In this document: positions 36,166 through 42,688 of the stretch, piece after piece
Layout: each line of letters opens with the position of its first letter
Numbering within the stretch: position 1 is the first letter of the stretch
Sequence record: ON210144.1
Length of the DNA: 44,883 nt
Strand: one strand, 5' to 3'
Source: Escherichia phage EEc2
Made by a program: the position numbers and the translations under genes
The notes under the pieces: model-generated
Seen by the model: the letters and a program-made list of their open reading frames with translations, nothing else
Database searches by the model: none
Told to the model about the DNA's origin: nothing

Positions 36166-36448
36166 ACATGCAGCTACAGAGGATGAGGTTGGCATTCTGC
36201 ATGGTGCTATTACCAAAATCTTCAATAAGAAAGCACAGGCAATACTGGACACTATAGAAGAAGACCCTGATGCAGCATTACATTTAGTGTCTGGTAAGGA
36301 TATTGGTGCGATGTGTAAGTGGGTTCTTGATAACGGCATTACCGCCACACCTGCTGCACAGCAGGAAGAGTCCAAGTTATCTAAGCGCCTCAAGGCTATC
36401 CGAGAGGCATCCAGTGGTAAGATAATTCAATTCACTAAGGAGGATTGA
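36149..36448 (+). CDS. Terminase small subunit (gp18-like), about 99 aa
   Basis: GTG 36149 with GGAGGG 7 nt upstream, overlapping the holin 3' end; stop overlaps the large-terminase ATG. Assigned by synteny; start uncertain. Confidence 0.55.
   Translation: MSVHNKHAATEDEVGILHGAITKIFNKKAQAILDTIEEDPDAALHLVSGKDIGAMCKWVLDNGITATPAAQQEESKLSKRLKAIREASSGKIIQFTKED
36240..36260 (+). promoter_or_regulatory. Internal phage-promoter-like sequence P9 (CAATACTGGACACTATAGAAG) inside the small terminase gene
   Basis: 18 of 21 positions match consensus, including the full TACTGGACACTATAGAAG; lacks the upstream ATTT. Predicted +1 G at 36257. Confidence 0.45.
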
Positions 36449-38343
36449 TGGCTAAGGCAAGAGAATCACAAGCGGAGGCTCTTGCCAGATGGGAGATGCT
36501 ACAGGAGTTACAGCAGACCTTTCCTTACACAGCGGAAGGTTTGCTTCTCTTTGCAGATACAGTTATTCATAACTTAATTGCAGGCAACCCTCATCTGATT
36601 CGTATGCAGGCTGATATCTTGAAGTTCCTATTTTACGGACACAAGTACCGCCTCATCGAAGCGCCTCGTGGTATCGCTAAGACAACACTATCAGCAATCT
36701 ATACGGTATTCCGTATTATTCATGAACCGCATAAGCGTATCATGGTTGTGTCCCAAAACGCCAAGCGAGCAGAGGAAATCGCAGGTTGGGTAGTTAAAAT
36801 CTTCCGTGGCTTAGACTTTCTTGAGTTTATGCTGCCGGATATCTACGCTGGGGACCGTGCATCCGTTAAGGCGTTTGAGATTCATTACACCCTACGTGGT
36901 AGTGATAAGTCTCCTTCTGTATCCTGTTACTCAATCGAAGCAGGTATGCAGGGTGCTCGTGCTGATATTATTCTAGCGGATGACGTAGAGTCGATGCAGA
37001 ACGCTCGTACGGCAGCGGGCCGTGCCTTGCTTGAGGAACTGACTAAGGAGTTTGAATCTATCAACCAGTTTGGGGATATCATTTACCTTGGTACACCTCA
37101 GAACGTAAACTCTATCTACAACAACCTACCTGCTCGTGGTTACTCTGTTCGTATCTGGACTGCGCGTTACCCTTCAGTAGAGCAAGAGCAATGTTATGGC
37201 GACTTCCTTGCACCTATGATTGTTCAAGATATGAAGGACAACCCAGCACTTCGCTCAGGGTACGGGTTGGATGGTAATAGTGGTGCACCTTGTGCCCCTG
37301 AAATGTATGATGATGAAGTCCTGATTGAGAAGGAAATCTCTCAGGGTGCTGCTAAGTTCCAGCTTCAGTTCATGCTTAACACTCGCATGATGGATGCTGA
37401 CAGATACCCATTACGCCTGAACAATCTAATCTTCACCTCGTTTGGTACAGAGGAAGTCCCTGTGATGCCTACGTGGAGTAATGATTCCATAAACATCATT
37501 GGTGATGCACCTAAGTATGGTAACAAGCCTACGGATTTCATGTACAGACCTGTAGCTCGCCCATACGAATGGGGTGCTGTCTCCCGCAAGATTATGTATA
37601 TTGACCCTGCGGGTGGTGGTAAGAACGGAGATGAGACGGGTGTAGCCATCGTATTCCTGCACGGCACATTCATTTATGTGTATCAGTGCTTTGGTGTACC
37701 TGGCGGATACCGAGAATCGTCCCTGAATCGCATTGTGCAGGCCGCAAAGCAAGCGGGTGTTAAAGAGGTATTCATTGAGAAAAACTTTGGTCATGGCGCG
37801 TTTGAGGCTGTTATAAAGCCATACTTTGAGCGAGAATGGCCTGTGACTATTGAAGAGGATTACGCCACTGGTCAAAAAGAACTCCGTATCATAGAGACAT
37901 TGGAGCCGCTGATGACCGCGCATAGGCTTATCTTCAATGCAGAGATGGTCAAGTCGGATTTCGCTTCAGTACAGAACTACCCGCTTGAACTGCGGATGTC
38001 TTATAGTCTGTTCCATCAAATGTCGAACATCACTATTGAGAAGAACAGCCTCAGGCACGATGACCGCTTAGACGCTCTGTATGGCGCTGTGCGTCAATTA
38101 ACTTCTCAGATAGACTATGACGAGGTTACTCGAATTAATCGCCTCAGAGCGCAGGAGATGCGTGATTATATACAGGCGATGAATACACCTAGGCTTCGTA
38201 GGGCCATGCTGTACGGTGATTATGGTGATGAGCGAAGAACAACTAACACCTCTCTAGCGATGCAGCAGAGGGTTTACGGGCAGAATTGGAGGCACCGCTC
38301 TGGGTCTAGAAATACACTTTCCTCAAGGATTTCAAGGATTTAG
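36448..38343 (+). CDS. Terminase large subunit (T7 gp19-like)
   Basis: ATG 36448 with TAAGGAGG upstream (track start 36445 is TTG); ATPase and nuclease motif regions typical of T7-type large terminase. Confidence 0.9.
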   Translation: MAKARESQAEALARWEMLQELQQTFPYTAEGLLLFADTVIHNLIAGNPHLIRMQADILKFLFYGHKYRLIEAPRGIAKTTLSAIYTVFRIIHEPHKRIMVVSQNAKRAEEIAGWVVKIFRGLDFLEFMLPDIYAGDRASVKAFEIHYTLRGSDKSPSVSCYSIEAGMQGARADIILADDVESMQNARTAAGRALLEELTKEFESINQFGDIIYLGTPQNVNSIYNNLPARGYSVRIWTARYPSVEQEQCYGDFLAPMIVQDMKDNPALRSGYGLDGNSGAPCAPEMYDDEVLIEKEISQGAAKFQLQFMLNTRMMDADRYPLRLNNLIFTSFGTEEVPVMPTWSNDSINIIGDAPKYGNKPTDFMYRPVARPYEWGAVSRKIMYIDPAGGGKNGDETGVAIVFLHGTFIYVYQCFGVPGGYRESSLNRIVQAAKQAGVKEVFIEKNFGHGAFEAVIKPYFEREWPVTIEEDYATGQKELRIIETLEPLMTAHRLIFNAEMVKSDFASVQNYPLELRMSYSLFHQMSNITIEKNSLRHDDRLDALYGAVRQLTSQIDYDEVTRINRLRAQEMRDYIQAMNTPRLRRAMLYGDYGDERRTTNTSLAMQQRVYGQNWRHRSGSRNTLSSRISRI

Positions 38344-38344
38344 T

Positions 38345-38365
38345 ATTTACTGGACACTATAGGAG
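38345..38365 (+). promoter_or_regulatory. Phage promoter P10 (ATTTACTGGACACTATAGGAG)
   Basis: 20/21 consensus; +1 G at 38362; 2 nt after the terminase stop, upstream of the paralog cluster. Confidence 0.8.
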
Positions 38366-38490
38366 GGATACCAAGAGAATAAAAGGATAATATAGGATTA
38401 CCTAGGCTATATAGGTACACCTTATTATGAGGGTACCCCTGTACCCTCTTCTTACCTACTTCATTATTTACTATAAACAAGGAGTATAGA

Positions 38491-38772
38491 ATGGCTAATA
38501 ATTATAGTGATCAACCACTAACAGGACGATATGATCGAAAGCAGGAGACGCCTGTAAGTGAAGCGTTAATGCTCCCTGTTGTTACAGAGGAGTCTATTAC
38601 GAAGAAATCCAATGTTATCAATGATGCAACCAAATCTGGCAAACAGAAAGCAGCAATGGTGTGTCGCCCTGTAGGTGGCACTCTTGAGATTGCCATTGCT
38701 ACTGGCAGCAAAGAGGATGCAGATTGGTTGTCTGTTAAAATGGATGGCGTTGGTCTTATTACACCGGCTTAA
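38491..38772 (+). CDS. Small protein, paralog A of a tandem family (93 aa)
   Basis: AAGGAG SD; shares ...INxxxxSGKQKxAMVxxxxxGxxxxIAIAxGSxxxDxW... with paralogs B and C. Confidence 0.6.
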   Translation: MANNYSDQPLTGRYDRKQETPVSEALMLPVVTEESITKKSNVINDATKSGKQKAAMVCRPVGGTLEIAIATGSKEDADWLSVKMDGVGLITPA

Positions 38773-38789
38773 TAAAAGGAGAAGATAAT

Positions 38790-39077
38790 ATGTCTAAGTA
38801 TGGCGATGCAGGTACTACTACTGGTCAGGCTTTTCGTGTAAAAGCAGTACAAACTATTGCAACTGCAATCCCTATGCCTATCGTAGCAGAAGCTGACCTT
38901 AAAAAGAAAGATCATCCTATTAATATTGAACACCTATCTGGTAAGCAGAAAGGTGCTATGGTGGTTGTAGATAAGGGAGATAATAGCCTTTATATTGCTA
39001 TTGCACGTGGTTCTGCACCAACTGACCAGTGGGATGTAACTACTATGGAAGCTGTACCTGTAACACCAGGAGCTTAA
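38790..39077 (+). CDS. Small protein, paralog B of a tandem family (95 aa)
   Basis: AAAAGGAGAAG SD; aligns with A and C across HLSGKQKGAMVVVDKGDNSLYIAIARGSAPTDQWD. Confidence 0.6.
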   Translation: MSKYGDAGTTTGQAFRVKAVQTIATAIPMPIVAEADLKKKDHPINIEHLSGKQKGAMVVVDKGDNSLYIAIARGSAPTDQWDVTTMEAVPVTPGA

Positions 39078-39078
39078 T

Positions 39079-39291
39079 ATGCTGGGAGTAACAGGACAAC
39101 GCAATAAGAATGTAGCCACCAAAGTAGTGGCTGATTTAGCTACTGCTGCTACTGTAGAGGAATTACAAGATCAACATAGCTCTATTAACCGTGCTGACCT
39201 TTCTGGTAAACAAGAAGGTTCCGCTGTTATTGTTAAGAAAGAAGATGGGAATTATTCTATCTTTTGTAGCAACAGGAAGCAAGCCGACTGA
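39079..39291 (+). CDS. Paralog C, N-terminal portion (70 aa), terminated by a frame change relative to A and B
   Basis: AGGAG SD; ...DLSGKQEGSAVIVKKEDGNYSIF then stop after 8 non-homologous codons; the homologous continuation is in the +1 frame. Confidence 0.5.
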   Translation: MLGVTGQRNKNVATKVVADLATAATVEELQDQHSSINRADLSGKQEGSAVIVKKEDGNYSIFCSNRKQAD

Positions 39292-39769
39292 TGTGTGGAA
39301 AGAGTTGTCTCCAACAATACCAGAGCAAGAGATGCCTGCTGAATACATTGATATGATTGATGTTCAAATTCATCAAGATTCTGCAAGCAACTTACGCATA
39401 GACTCTTCTCGCACTAGTTTAATACAAACACCAATGTGGGATACTGAAGGTGAGTTGTTATTCCGTAATACACTAAGTGCAACATGTTCTTGTACTATTC
39501 TTGTTGATGGTGCGTCTGGTGTTCGTCAGGATTTTACTTTTAAGATTAATGGACTTTTAGAGCAGGAAGAGCAGTATTATGATATTGACACACTTATGTG
39601 CTCTATTCACTCTGCAACAACAACTAATGGCCTTACCTTGTGTATGCCAGATGCTAAAAGTGCAAAGACTAATAAAGTGGTAGTTAAGATCGACACTATG
39701 CAGTCATTAGCTATGAGCTTTGATCTTAACTTCCTTGTAGAATGGACGTCACCAACGAGGTTACTATAA
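39245..39769 (+). CDS. Paralog C, C-terminal portion in the +1 frame (about 174 aa from the first ATG)
   Basis: +1-frame ORF whose beginning (...SFVATGSKPTDVWKEL) continues the paralog alignment; internal ATG at 39245 has only a weak purine-rich SD. Confidence 0.4.
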   Translation: MGIILSFVATGSKPTDVWKELSPTIPEQEMPAEYIDMIDVQIHQDSASNLRIDSSRTSLIQTPMWDTEGELLFRNTLSATCSCTILVDGASGVRQDFTFKINGLLEQEEQYYDIDTLMCSIHSATTTNGLTLCMPDAKSAKTNKVVVKIDTMQSLAMSFDLNFLVEWTSPTRLL

Positions 39770-40113
39770 TGCTAAATCAATACTTCAAGCGTAAAGAATT
39801 TGCTTGCCGTTGTGGGTGCGGTACATCCACTGTTGATGCTGAGTTACTACAGGCAGTAACAGATGTGCGTGAGCACTTTGGTGCTCCTGTGGTTATTACT
39901 TCTGGTCATCGTTGCCCCAAGCACAACGCTGATGTAGGTGGAGCTAAGAACTCCATGCATCTTACTGGTAAGGCTGCTGACATTAAGGTACGAGGCATCT
40001 TACCTTCTGATGTACATAAGTATCTTACTGATAAGTACCAAGGCAAGTATGGTATTGGTAAGTATACCTCCTTTACTCATATTGATGTACGTAACGGGTG
40101 TGCACGATGGTAG
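39769..40113 (+). CDS. Endolysin, peptidase M15-type (114 aa)
   Basis: HRCPKHN and NSMHLTGKAADI (SxHxxGxAxD) and THIDVR match the zinc peptidase M15 endolysin pattern; ATG 39769 (track start 39742 lacks RBS). Confidence 0.75.
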   Translation: MLNQYFKRKEFACRCGCGTSTVDAELLQAVTDVREHFGAPVVITSGHRCPKHNADVGGAKNSMHLTGKAADIKVRGILPSDVHKYLTDKYQGKYGIGKYTSFTHIDVRNGCARW

Positions 40114-40708: not shown

Positions 40709-40789
40709 AGGTAAGATAGCGCCGTTCTTTTGAGCGGCCTATTACTAGCCAATCTTCATAGGGAGGGTTGGAAAGTAATAGGAGATAGC

Positions 40790-42688
40790 ATGGCTAAATT
40801 AACCAAACCTAATACTGAAGGAATCTTGCATAAAGGGCAATCTTTGTATGAGTACCTTGATGCGAGAGTTTTAACATCAAAGCCGTTTGGTGCTGTAGGT
40901 GACGCCACTACTGATGATACTGAGGTTATAGCTGCTTCATTAAACTCTCAGAAAGCTGTCACAGTCTCAGACGGTGTATTCTCTAGCTCTGGTATTAATA
41001 GTAATTACTGTAACTTAGACGGCAGGGGTAGTGGCGTGCTAAGTCACCGTTCAAGTACAGGTAACTACTTAGTATTTAACAATCTACGTGCAGGTCGCTT
41101 AAGTAATATTACGGTAGAAAGTAATAAGGCGACTGATACAACTCAGGGACAGCAGGTATCCCTTGCTGGTGGAAGTGATGTTACTGTAAGTGACGTTAAC
41201 TTCTCAAACGTTAAAGGTACTGGTTTCAGTTTAATCGCATACCCTAATGATGCGCCACCGGATGGACTTATGATTAAAGGCATTCGAGGTAGCTATTCCG
41301 GCTATGCTACTAATAAGGCAGCCGGATGCGTACTTGCTGACTCCTCAGTTAACTCCCTCATAGATAACGTCATTGCTAAGAACTACCCTCAGTTCGGAGC
41401 AGTAGAGTTGAAAGGTACAGCCAGTTACAACATAGTCAGTAATGTTATAGGGGCAGATTGCCAGCATGTAACTTACAACGGCACTGAAGGGCCAATAGCT
41501 CCCTCTAATAACCTTATCAATGGGGTAGTGGCTAATAATCCTAAGTATGCAGCGGTTGTTGCAGGCAAAGGTAGTACGAACTTAATATCAGATGTGCTCG
41601 TAGATTACTCAACCTCTGATGCTAGGCAGGCTCATGGTGTTACAGTAGAGGGTTCTGATAACGTCATAAATAATGTGCTTATGTCAGGATGTGATGGTAC
41701 TAACTCTTTAGGACAAAGTCAGACTGCTACAATTGCGCGCTTTAGAGGTACAGCTAATAACAACTATGCGTCTGTATTTCCTAGCTACAGTGCTACAGGT
41801 GTTATTACTTTCGAATCAGGCTCTACCCGTAACTTCGTAGAGGTAAAGCACCCTGGCAGGAGAAACGACCTTCTCAGTTCTGCTAGTACTATTGACGGTG
41901 CAGCTACTATTGACGGCACTAGTAATAGTAACGTAGTGCACGCACCTGCCTTAGGGCAGTACATAGGTAGTATGTCAGGCAGGTTCGAATGGCGGATTAA
42001 GTCCATGTCACTCCCTTCAGGCGTTCTTACTTCTGCCGATAAGTACAGAATGCTTGGAGATGGTGCTGTGTCATTAGCTGTAGGTGGGGGCACTTCTTCT
42101 CAAATTCGCCTATTTACTTCTGATGGTACTTCTCGTACAGTGTCCCTCACCAACGGTAACGTGCGTCTTTCTACCAGTAGCACAGGCTTTTTGCAGTTAG
42201 GTGCTGATGCAATGACCCCAGACAGTACTGGTACATACGCATTAGGTTCCGCCAGCCGAGCATGGTCTGGCGGTTTTACTCAAGCAGCATTCACTGTTAC
42301 CTCAGATGCTCGGTGTAAAACAGAACCTCTTACTATCTCAGATGCCTTACTGGATGCTTGGTCTGAAGTTGACTTTGTGCAGTTTCAGTATTTGGATCGT
42401 GTTGAGGAGAAGGGTGCAGACTCAGCTAGATGGCACTTCGGTATCATCGCTCAGCGAGCTAAGGAGGCTTTCGAACGTCACGGTATAGATGCACATCGCT
42501 ATGGCTTCTTGTGCTTCGACAGTTGGGATGATGTATACGAGGAAGATGCCAATGGCTCTCGTAAACTGATTACACCAGCAGGTTCCCGCTACGGTATTCG
42601 TTACGAGGAAGTACTGATATTAGAGGCTGCGTTGATGCGGAGGACTATTAAGCGTATGCAGGAAGCACTAGCTTCCCTGCCTAAGTAA
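40790..42688 (+). CDS. Tailspike 1: beta-helix polysaccharide depolymerase with C-terminal intramolecular-chaperone autoprotease domain, 632 aa
   Basis: ATG 40790 with GGAG upstream (track start 40730 is TTG). N-terminal FGAVGDATTDDTEVI pectate-lyase-like motif; C-terminal 128 aa starting SDARCK match the self-cleaving chaperone domain of endosialidases and T5 L-shaped fibre. Confidence 0.85.
   Translation: MAKLTKPNTEGILHKGQSLYEYLDARVLTSKPFGAVGDATTDDTEVIAASLNSQKAVTVSDGVFSSSGINSNYCNLDGRGSGVLSHRSSTGNYLVFNNLRAGRLSNITVESNKATDTTQGQQVSLAGGSDVTVSDVNFSNVKGTGFSLIAYPNDAPPDGLMIKGIRGSYSGYATNKAAGCVLADSSVNSLIDNVIAKNYPQFGAVELKGTASYNIVSNVIGADCQHVTYNGTEGPIAPSNNLINGVVANNPKYAAVVAGKGSTNLISDVLVDYSTSDARQAHGVTVEGSDNVINNVLMSGCDGTNSLGQSQTATIARFRGTANNNYASVFPSYSATGVITFESGSTRNFVEVKHPGRRNDLLSSASTIDGAATIDGTSNSNVVHAPALGQYIGSMSGRFEWRIKSMSLPSGVLTSADKYRMLGDGAVSLAVGGGTSSQIRLFTSDGTSRTVSLTNGNVRLSTSSTGFLQLGADAMTPDSTGTYALGSASRAWSGGFTQAAFTVTSDARCKTEPLTISDALLDAWSEVDFVQFQYLDRVEEKGADSARWHFGIIAQRAKEAFERHGIDAHRYGFLCFDSWDDVYEEDANGSRKLITPAGSRYGIRYEEVLILEAALMRRTIKRMQEALASLPK

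Follow-up and report, generated by a model that had tools for sequence, protein, structure and literature searches.

Three paralogous genes downstream of the large terminase gene

We analysed the complete genome of Escherichia phage EEc2 (ON210144.1), a K1-5-like podophage of the genus Vectrevirus, with a focus on a tandem triplet of small genes, hereafter called A, B and C, that follows the gene for the large terminase subunit. The window, i.e. the whole stretch of 44,883 bp that was analysed, shares 98% identity with the genome of phage EEc4 along most of its extent, and the genes and sites from the large terminase to the endolysin gene are on its + strand. A (38491..38772) codes for a short form of 93 residues that consists of the shared domain only, and B (38790..39077) for a short form of 95 residues. 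C is distributed over two reading frames. Its 5' fragment is an open reading frame (ORF) of 70 codons (39079..39291), whose product ends with ...NYSIFCSNRKQAD, and its 3' part, in the +1 frame (39266..39769), codes for 167 residues comprising the end of the shared domain and a predicted beta-sandwich of ~154 residues. The frame changes at a T-run with a one-base insertion (39262..39265), which reads TTTT in EEc2 and TTT in all relatives.

An initial reading of the sequence, made prior to any database search (hereafter the original prediction), had proposed that three consecutive ORFs located after the terminase gene share a domain. The gene coordinates and three types of sequence comparison bear this out. 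A, B and C are significant paralogs, with BLASTP E-values of 2e-11 between A and B, 8e-12 between B and intact C and 2e-6 between A and intact C. Their significance was upheld in a Smith-Waterman shuffle test, with z scores of 16.2 for A and B and 17.4 for B and repaired C, and none of 2,000 shuffles reached the real score. The shared-domain profile has only three match sites in the window, which correspond to A (137 bits), B (147 bits) and C.

Over C, this profile matches positions 9-69 in frame 0 and 57-82 in frame +1. Repairing the frame raised the Smith-Waterman scores from 69 to 109 for B and C and from 49 to 76 for A and C, showing that the homology of C truly continues in the +1 frame. 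The proposed switch of frame at the T-run, after which the sequence reads VATGSKPTDVW, was thus confirmed. In the 70-residue ORF, residues 1-62 are authentic, and the final eight codons represent out-of-frame read-through ending at a TGA. The 167 residues that follow the frame change, ~154 of them past the shared domain, include four Cys residues; this Cys-containing extension is absent from A and B, as also noticed in the original prediction.

A one-base insertion private to EEc2

The two C fragments match consecutive parts of the phrog_32357 profile (234 positions), with the 70-residue ORF covering positions 1-64 (E-value 2e-28) and the downstream ORF positions 51-231 (2.5e-88), which indicates that they derive from one ancestral gene. 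A single ORF of 690-714 nt is annotated at this place in phages SHAK7163, 101117UKE2, R4596, CrRp3, EEc4, Koku and Ro_P3a, and intact C genes of relatives form one ORF of 229-232 codons. Using the intact C protein as a tblastn query, we collected 30 phage records at a coverage of at least 80%. The 11 closest ones (89-98% identity) code for the full 230-residue protein in a single reading frame. The match came as one piece in nine of these 11 records and was merged with that of the upstream paralog B in SHAK7163 and SHAK7704; the C ORF of SHAK7163 is annotated as an intact gene.

DNA alignments of the orthologous locus, with five and nine sequences, showed TTT in SHAK7163, 101117UKE2, R4596, CrRp3 and EEc4, and TTTT in EEc2. 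Three metagenome contigs likewise have TTT, and the long fused C ORF is intact in all relatives examined. In a base-by-base comparison of EEc2 with EEc4 over 44.9 kb, position 39262 was the only uncompensated single-base indel within a conserved gene of the window. The repaired C protein of EEc2 is 97-98% identical to those of intact relatives and has no further defect. A search for the TTTT allele in IMG/VR returned only CrRp3, which carries TTT, and no match was found in the JGI metagenomes. Similarly, an exact-protein look-up of the EEc2 C 3' ORF returned the EEc2 record only. The split of C is therefore a one-base insertion (TTT to TTTT) private to EEc2, and the deposited EEc2 record already carries it.

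A genuine split gene was among the explanations initially considered. C might comprise two functional genes, the 70-residue N-terminal fragment and a separately initiated 174-residue C-terminal fragment, which would work separately or by fragment complementation. GenBank indeed annotates a 174-residue ORF from ATG 39245 to 39769 (URP75096.1, hypothetical protein EEc2_0049); this ATG is in frame and preceded by a purine-rich stretch, and the knob domain described below would stay complete. However, the purine-rich stretch abuts the ATG, a poor Shine-Dalgarno spacing, and the conserved domain is cut. Fragment 1 loses the A.GS...W strands and fragment 2 the TGQ, PVV, IN and SGKQ motifs, so that neither keeps the presumed anchoring module. 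The arrangement was found in no relative: each of them has one intact ORF, contrary to the idea of two independently evolved ordinary genes. We thus regard two functional genes as very improbable, and both C fragments are likely to be non-functional.

Another proposal was a programmed +1 frameshift on UUU_U, which would generate isoforms of 70 and 229 residues from one mRNA. The tRNA-Phe on UUU can re-pair perfectly with the overlapping UUU one base downstream, the 0-frame stop is located just eight codons downstream, and the product would be exactly equal to the wild-type protein (...SIF-VATGSK). Slippery homopolymers with an overlapping ORF are also known from the late genes 10A/10B of T7 and G/GT of lambda (-1) and from prfB (+1), but those sites are conserved and have defined stimulators, whereas the EEc2 site is private to one genome. 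The two-frame layout is missing from every relative, including 95-98% identical genomes, and hence is not an evolved feature; the 11 close records and the three metagenome contigs all carry TTT. The context of the T-run is not stimulatory either. The A-site codon is UGU rather than a stop, without a hungry-codon context, and sequence inspection revealed no Shine-Dalgarno-like element within 3-6 nt upstream of the T-run, i.e. at prfB-type spacing. The 85 nt located 3' of the T-run fold no better than shuffles (z = +0.83). A C-type remnant in SP6 also requires a +1 shift in the same domain region, but it is a pseudogene with a deletion of ~100 codons (see below). Background frameshift slippage is expected at ~1% or less, and rescue of C by such unselected slippage would yield at most trace amounts of full-length product. 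On these sequence comparisons, we consider the recoding reading of the split refuted, with hardly any probability left for a programmed slip. The frame change of C is in itself of little import, as it represents a private one-base insertion in the deposited genome and not a recoding signal.

A family mislabelled in databases

The original prediction had not recognized the family to which the three proteins belong. Profile searches identified it, with A and B matching phrog_2725 (E-values of 4e-37 and 7e-45, respectively). We collected 260 homolog clusters with proteins of 91-101 residues, mostly on podophage contigs of ~44 kb. As judged from sequence similarity, A, B and C belong to the same family as K1-5 gp41/gp42, SP6 gp42/43 and Kp7 gp45-47. 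The gp41 and gp42 proteins of K1-5 and K1E and gp42 and gp43 of SP6 are encoded at the same position, A being the ortholog of K1-5 gp41 and Kp7 gp45, and B that of K1-5 gp42 and Kp7 gp46. The location between the large terminase gene and the lysis cassette is common to EEc2, K1-5, SP6, Kp7, R4596, CrRp3 and metagenome contigs. The number of genes varies: K1-5 and K1E have just two short ones, to which SP6 adds the decayed remnant of a third, and EEc2 has three.

Many RefSeq records, including those of K1-5, K1E, SP6 and CrRp3, label the phrog_2725 family 'acetyl-CoA acetyltransferase'. This name apparently stems from K1E gp42, where it was given as 'putative'. We rejected an assignment as acetyl-CoA acetyltransferase (thiolase), because there is no domain match and the proteins have 93-95 residues, compared with ~390 for thiolase. 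No match was found for the family proteins in Pfam (E-values up to 1) or NCBIfam (up to 0.1). Searches of Pfam, NCBIfam and PDB sequences with A, B, C, the three-repeat proteins described below and the profiles gave no informative match, and the PDB sequence search revealed no solved structure for the shared domain. In the literature on gp41/gp42 function, Vectrevirus proteomics and EEc2/EEc4, we found only a preprint on Kp7 and a genome table. The family, which occurs in hundreds of SP6/K1-5-like phages that are therapeutic candidates, is mislabelled in RefSeq, and its members are most likely virion (minor capsid) proteins. In EEc2, the case comes down to a private frameshift of the ordinary kind in a presumed accessory structural gene, in a family that is mislabelled in databases and structurally uncharacterised.

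Homologues in virions of Kp7

In Klebsiella phage Kp7 (ON148527), gp45 and gp46 are annotated as 'minor capsid protein' and gp47 as 'minor capsid protein with Ig-domain' (Ig for immunoglobulin). A preprint (bioRxiv 10.1101/2024.05.19.594906) reports all three in purified virions, where they were detected by sodium dodecyl sulfate-polyacrylamide gel electrophoresis (SDS-PAGE) and mass spectrometry. Kp7 and EEc2 have the same gene order, with the large terminase gene, two genes for ~90-residue proteins, a longer paralog and the M15 endolysin gene. The N-terminal domains of gp45-47 and of A, B and C are homologous, with the TGQ, PVV, IN, SGKQ-GA, A-G and W-TPA motifs in common, and A is 44% identical to gp45. 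In agreement with orthology by position, the best-scoring profile is the A-type for gp45 (73 bits), the B-type for gp46 (64 bits) and the C-type for gp47 (44 bits). Judging from their homology to these proteins, A, B and C most likely represent minor capsid (decoration) proteins.

A, B and C are located directly 3' of a phage promoter and 5' of the lysis cassette and the tailspike genes, which identifies them as late genes. We propose that they code for late virion proteins, with the shared domain serving to attach them to the particle and, as in Kp7, most likely to its capsid. The extension of C would then form an exposed, exchangeable adhesin-like module. In the long paralog of Kp7 (gp47, 178 residues), which is intact whereas C of EEc2 is split, the C-terminal module is Ig-like, and it is unrelated to the knob-like beta-sandwich of ~154 residues predicted in EEc2. 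The Ig domain of gp47 matches the exposed C-domain of the T5 decoration protein pb10 (5lxk, 2.8e-16).

T4 Hoc, T5 pb10 and N4 gp17 conform to the same model, in that they combine a capsid-binding part with an outward Ig-like or adhesin domain and are dispensable in the laboratory. However, their anchors are unrelated in sequence, and the domain found in EEc2 comes as two to three paralogs or, elsewhere, as a three-repeat chain. The short-plus-long logic of the EEc2 paralogs also recalls alpha-claw and alpha-paw of the T7-like podophage PhiM1 (PMC11440229), a paralogous decoration pair with a common capsid-binding motif, one member of which has an extra protruding arm. Unlike A, B and C, the PhiM1 proteins are encoded elsewhere in the genome; they form helical dimers at the 2-fold axes and have an unrelated fold.

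Predicted structure of the C-terminal module

Structure prediction complemented the profile searches for the extension. For an intact C ortholog that shares 98% identity with the repaired EEc2 protein, the AlphaFold2 model has a mean predicted local distance difference test (pLDDT) score of 75. In this model, the extension is predicted to form a beta-sandwich, with a possible likeness to the receptor-binding knobs found in fibres. Foldseek searches against viral models retrieved members of the family from phages of Klebsiella, Proteus, Vibrio, Erwinia, Aeromonas and Pseudomonas, as well as weaker matches named tail fibre or receptor-binding protein sandwich domain. The R1/R2 pyocin fibre, AP22 gp53, the heads of lactococcal receptor-binding proteins, reovirus sigma1 and the adenovirus knob share 4-11% identity with the C module. 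The likeness to fibre heads comes from a model with a pLDDT of 75; the C protein has no Pfam match and no fibre shaft.

Fused-repeat relatives

An exhaustive profile search for the shared domain in 1.84 billion representatives yielded 192 relatives. Many of them, from uncultured podophages, are 255-300 residues long and harbour three tandem copies of the domain (P0145-P0178; e.g. L015, 3287-4117). Each repeat in these fused proteins has a GDxxxK motif at its start and ITP[AT] at its end. The relatives also include 90-residue proteins with the domain alone, some proteins with two copies, and others in which a single domain is followed by an unrelated C-terminal extension of 236-438 residues. 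The genomic position appears to be conserved, since the three-repeat gene P0151 (L015) is located directly 3' of a T7-type large terminase gene, and the 438-residue long form is found near an endolysin gene. This long form is preceded by an 89-residue short paralog and separated from the M15 endolysin by a 214-residue ORF. Searches of IMG/VR, with either one protein or alignments as the query, did not locate the three-repeat genes, and their genetic contexts were obtained from exact look-ups.

Given the existence of three-copy fused proteins, the domain seems to function in oligomeric form, and separate paralogs and fused repeats may be alternative encodings of one assembly. Together, the modular long form and the three-repeat fused form point to an oligomeric decoration complex with no existing structure. 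We tentatively extend this idea to a single hetero-oligomeric capsid-decoration complex composed of A, B and C, the long subunit of which would carry an exchangeable surface module (a knob in EEc2, an Ig domain in Kp7 and different domains of 340-440 residues in others) that is selected in nature and repeatedly switched off by frameshifts in some lineages. If so, the split in EEc2 would capture one moment in a continuing process by which a capsid-borne adhesin is gained and lost, rather than noise. We nevertheless regard this extended proposal as doubtful. Phages with only two paralogs exist, and repeats 1-3 of the fused proteins showed no clean correspondence with A, B and C.

Selection on C and its disruption in other genomes

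We estimated the ratio of non-synonymous to synonymous substitution rates (dN/dS). It is about 0.1 for C (0.07-0.15, with 0.08-0.15 in comparison with R4596 and CrRp3), 0.06-0.30 for A and about 0.1 for B. Downstream of the frameshift, neither of the two differences between EEc2 and EEc4 or UKE2 is non-synonymous. C is thus under purifying selection, which implies that its lesion is either very recent or a miscall. We rejected an ancient pseudogene for EEc2 C on the basis of this dN/dS range and of the presence of only one lesion in the window.

We also searched 5.8 billion proteins with the repaired C protein, and found truncated relatives on full-length contigs of 44-45 kb. C is frameshifted by A4 to A3 near window position 39656 in L012, by T4 to T3 near 39532 in L013, and by a -1 shift near 39169 together with a -2 shift near 39343 in L014; all three contigs have intact genes for the terminase, A, B and the endolysin. 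Another C allele (P0293) is truncated at both ends. Compensated pairs of homopolymer changes were found in the intact C alleles P0001 and P0004 (QDLLFK vs QDFTFK and DAKVQK vs DAKSAK).

In SP6, gp44 and gp45 together correspond to a frameshifted, internally deleted C-type remnant (hhalign probability 98.7%, E-value 4e-16). This copy lacks ~100 codons and is therefore a pseudogene; unlike EEc2 C, it displays the features of an old one, with relaxed constraint and multiple lesions. In the SP6 sequence (L020, NC_004831, 2545-2980), gp44 (81 residues) and gp45 (55 residues) are not independent genes: the VYISTGGPDK motif extends into the +1 frame, and ...FEWTSDFDLLE at the C-terminus parallels ...VEWTSPTRLL of C. 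The C gene is absent from K1-5 and EC120. Its decay in SP6 and absence from K1-5 indicate that C is often lost. Thus, C is kept by selection in the long term yet frequently freshly broken or lost, and it seems unusually prone to disruption given a dN/dS of ~0.1. The conservation of the long paralog together with its frequent fresh disruption means that the surface properties of the particles may differ between phage stocks.

A genuine mutation or a miscall

The remaining alternative, also raised in the original prediction, is a sequencing or assembly artefact. The real phage would have TTT and an intact C gene of 229 codons, and the extra T would be a homopolymer miscall in the record. A single homopolymer base is involved, the repair of which restores a defect-free protein, and because C is under strong purifying selection, one would by default expect the gene to be intact. 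By contrast, consensus-level miscalls are rare for runs of three to four bases. The window also has no other uncompensated coding indel relative to its 98% identical relative, unlike what an error-prone platform would produce. General low sequence quality was rejected on the same grounds, by a genome-wide indel audit against EEc4. Furthermore, different C frameshifts with intact neighbouring genes are present in at least five other assemblies, which derive from unrelated samples, indicating that real disruption is common, and the frequent breakage of C elsewhere makes a genuine mutation in EEc2 more likely a priori. We consider an artefact less likely, though of appreciable probability, and the extra T is probably a real mutation of the EEc2 phage.

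Replication slippage on the short homopolymer would have caused a very recent loss of function of C, which would be dispensable in the short term. Translation would halt after 70 codons, such that the exposed module of C would not be made, and A and B would remain intact. No strong polar effect would be expected on the endolysin gene, because it has its own GAGG upstream.

Overall, we favour with moderate confidence the combination of a capsid-accessory family and a genuine, recent loss-of-function frameshift in C. Several observations weigh against it. The change sits at a run of three or four T, where a base-call error is possible. EEc4, which comes from the same study and the same submitters, carries a lone homopolymer frameshift of its own, from C3 to C2, in a tailspike gene, which may hint at an artefact of the platform or pipeline or at occasional consensus errors. 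As for the capsid, the location is taken from a single preprint and a single GenBank annotation that concern a homologue of 30-44% identity, and the Kp7 capsid entry 7y3t matches the major capsid protein only, with no chain matching the family profile.

Neighbouring features

The large terminase subunit gene that precedes the triplet (36445..38343) codes for 632 residues; PF22530 is present in its orthologs, which bear the annotation terminase large subunit. It is followed by an SP6/K1-5-type promoter for the phage RNA polymerase (TTTACTGGACACTATAGGAGGGA, 38346..38368), which heads the A-B-C-lysis transcription unit. Six promoter sites of this type were identified in the window, with 0 expected from shuffles. 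Between the promoter and A, a perfect 8-bp G+C-rich hairpin, GAGGGTAC-CCCT-GTACCCTC, is followed by TTCTT (38429..38448). It is located 60 nt 3' of the promoter and 40 nt 5' of A. A simple terminator scan of the window did not detect this hairpin, whereas its counterpart in R4596 is annotated as a putative terminator. It could be a terminator or an RNA-processing site, e.g. for RNase III as in T7.

Downstream of the triplet, the endolysin gene (39769..40113) codes for a peptidase M15_3 (PF08291, 1.3e-32), and its orthologs are annotated as 114-residue endolysins. Its ATG overlaps the stop codon of C (TAATG). The ORF list has an upstream start at ATG 39742 (123 residues), and relatives are annotated with the 114-residue form, which corresponds to ATG 39769. 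Further downstream, the EEc2 tailspike gene (40730-42688) is intact and codes for 652 residues. The CCC at window position 41826 corresponds to CC in EEc4 (about 41533), in which the first tailspike gene is split into ORFs of 350 and 228 residues.

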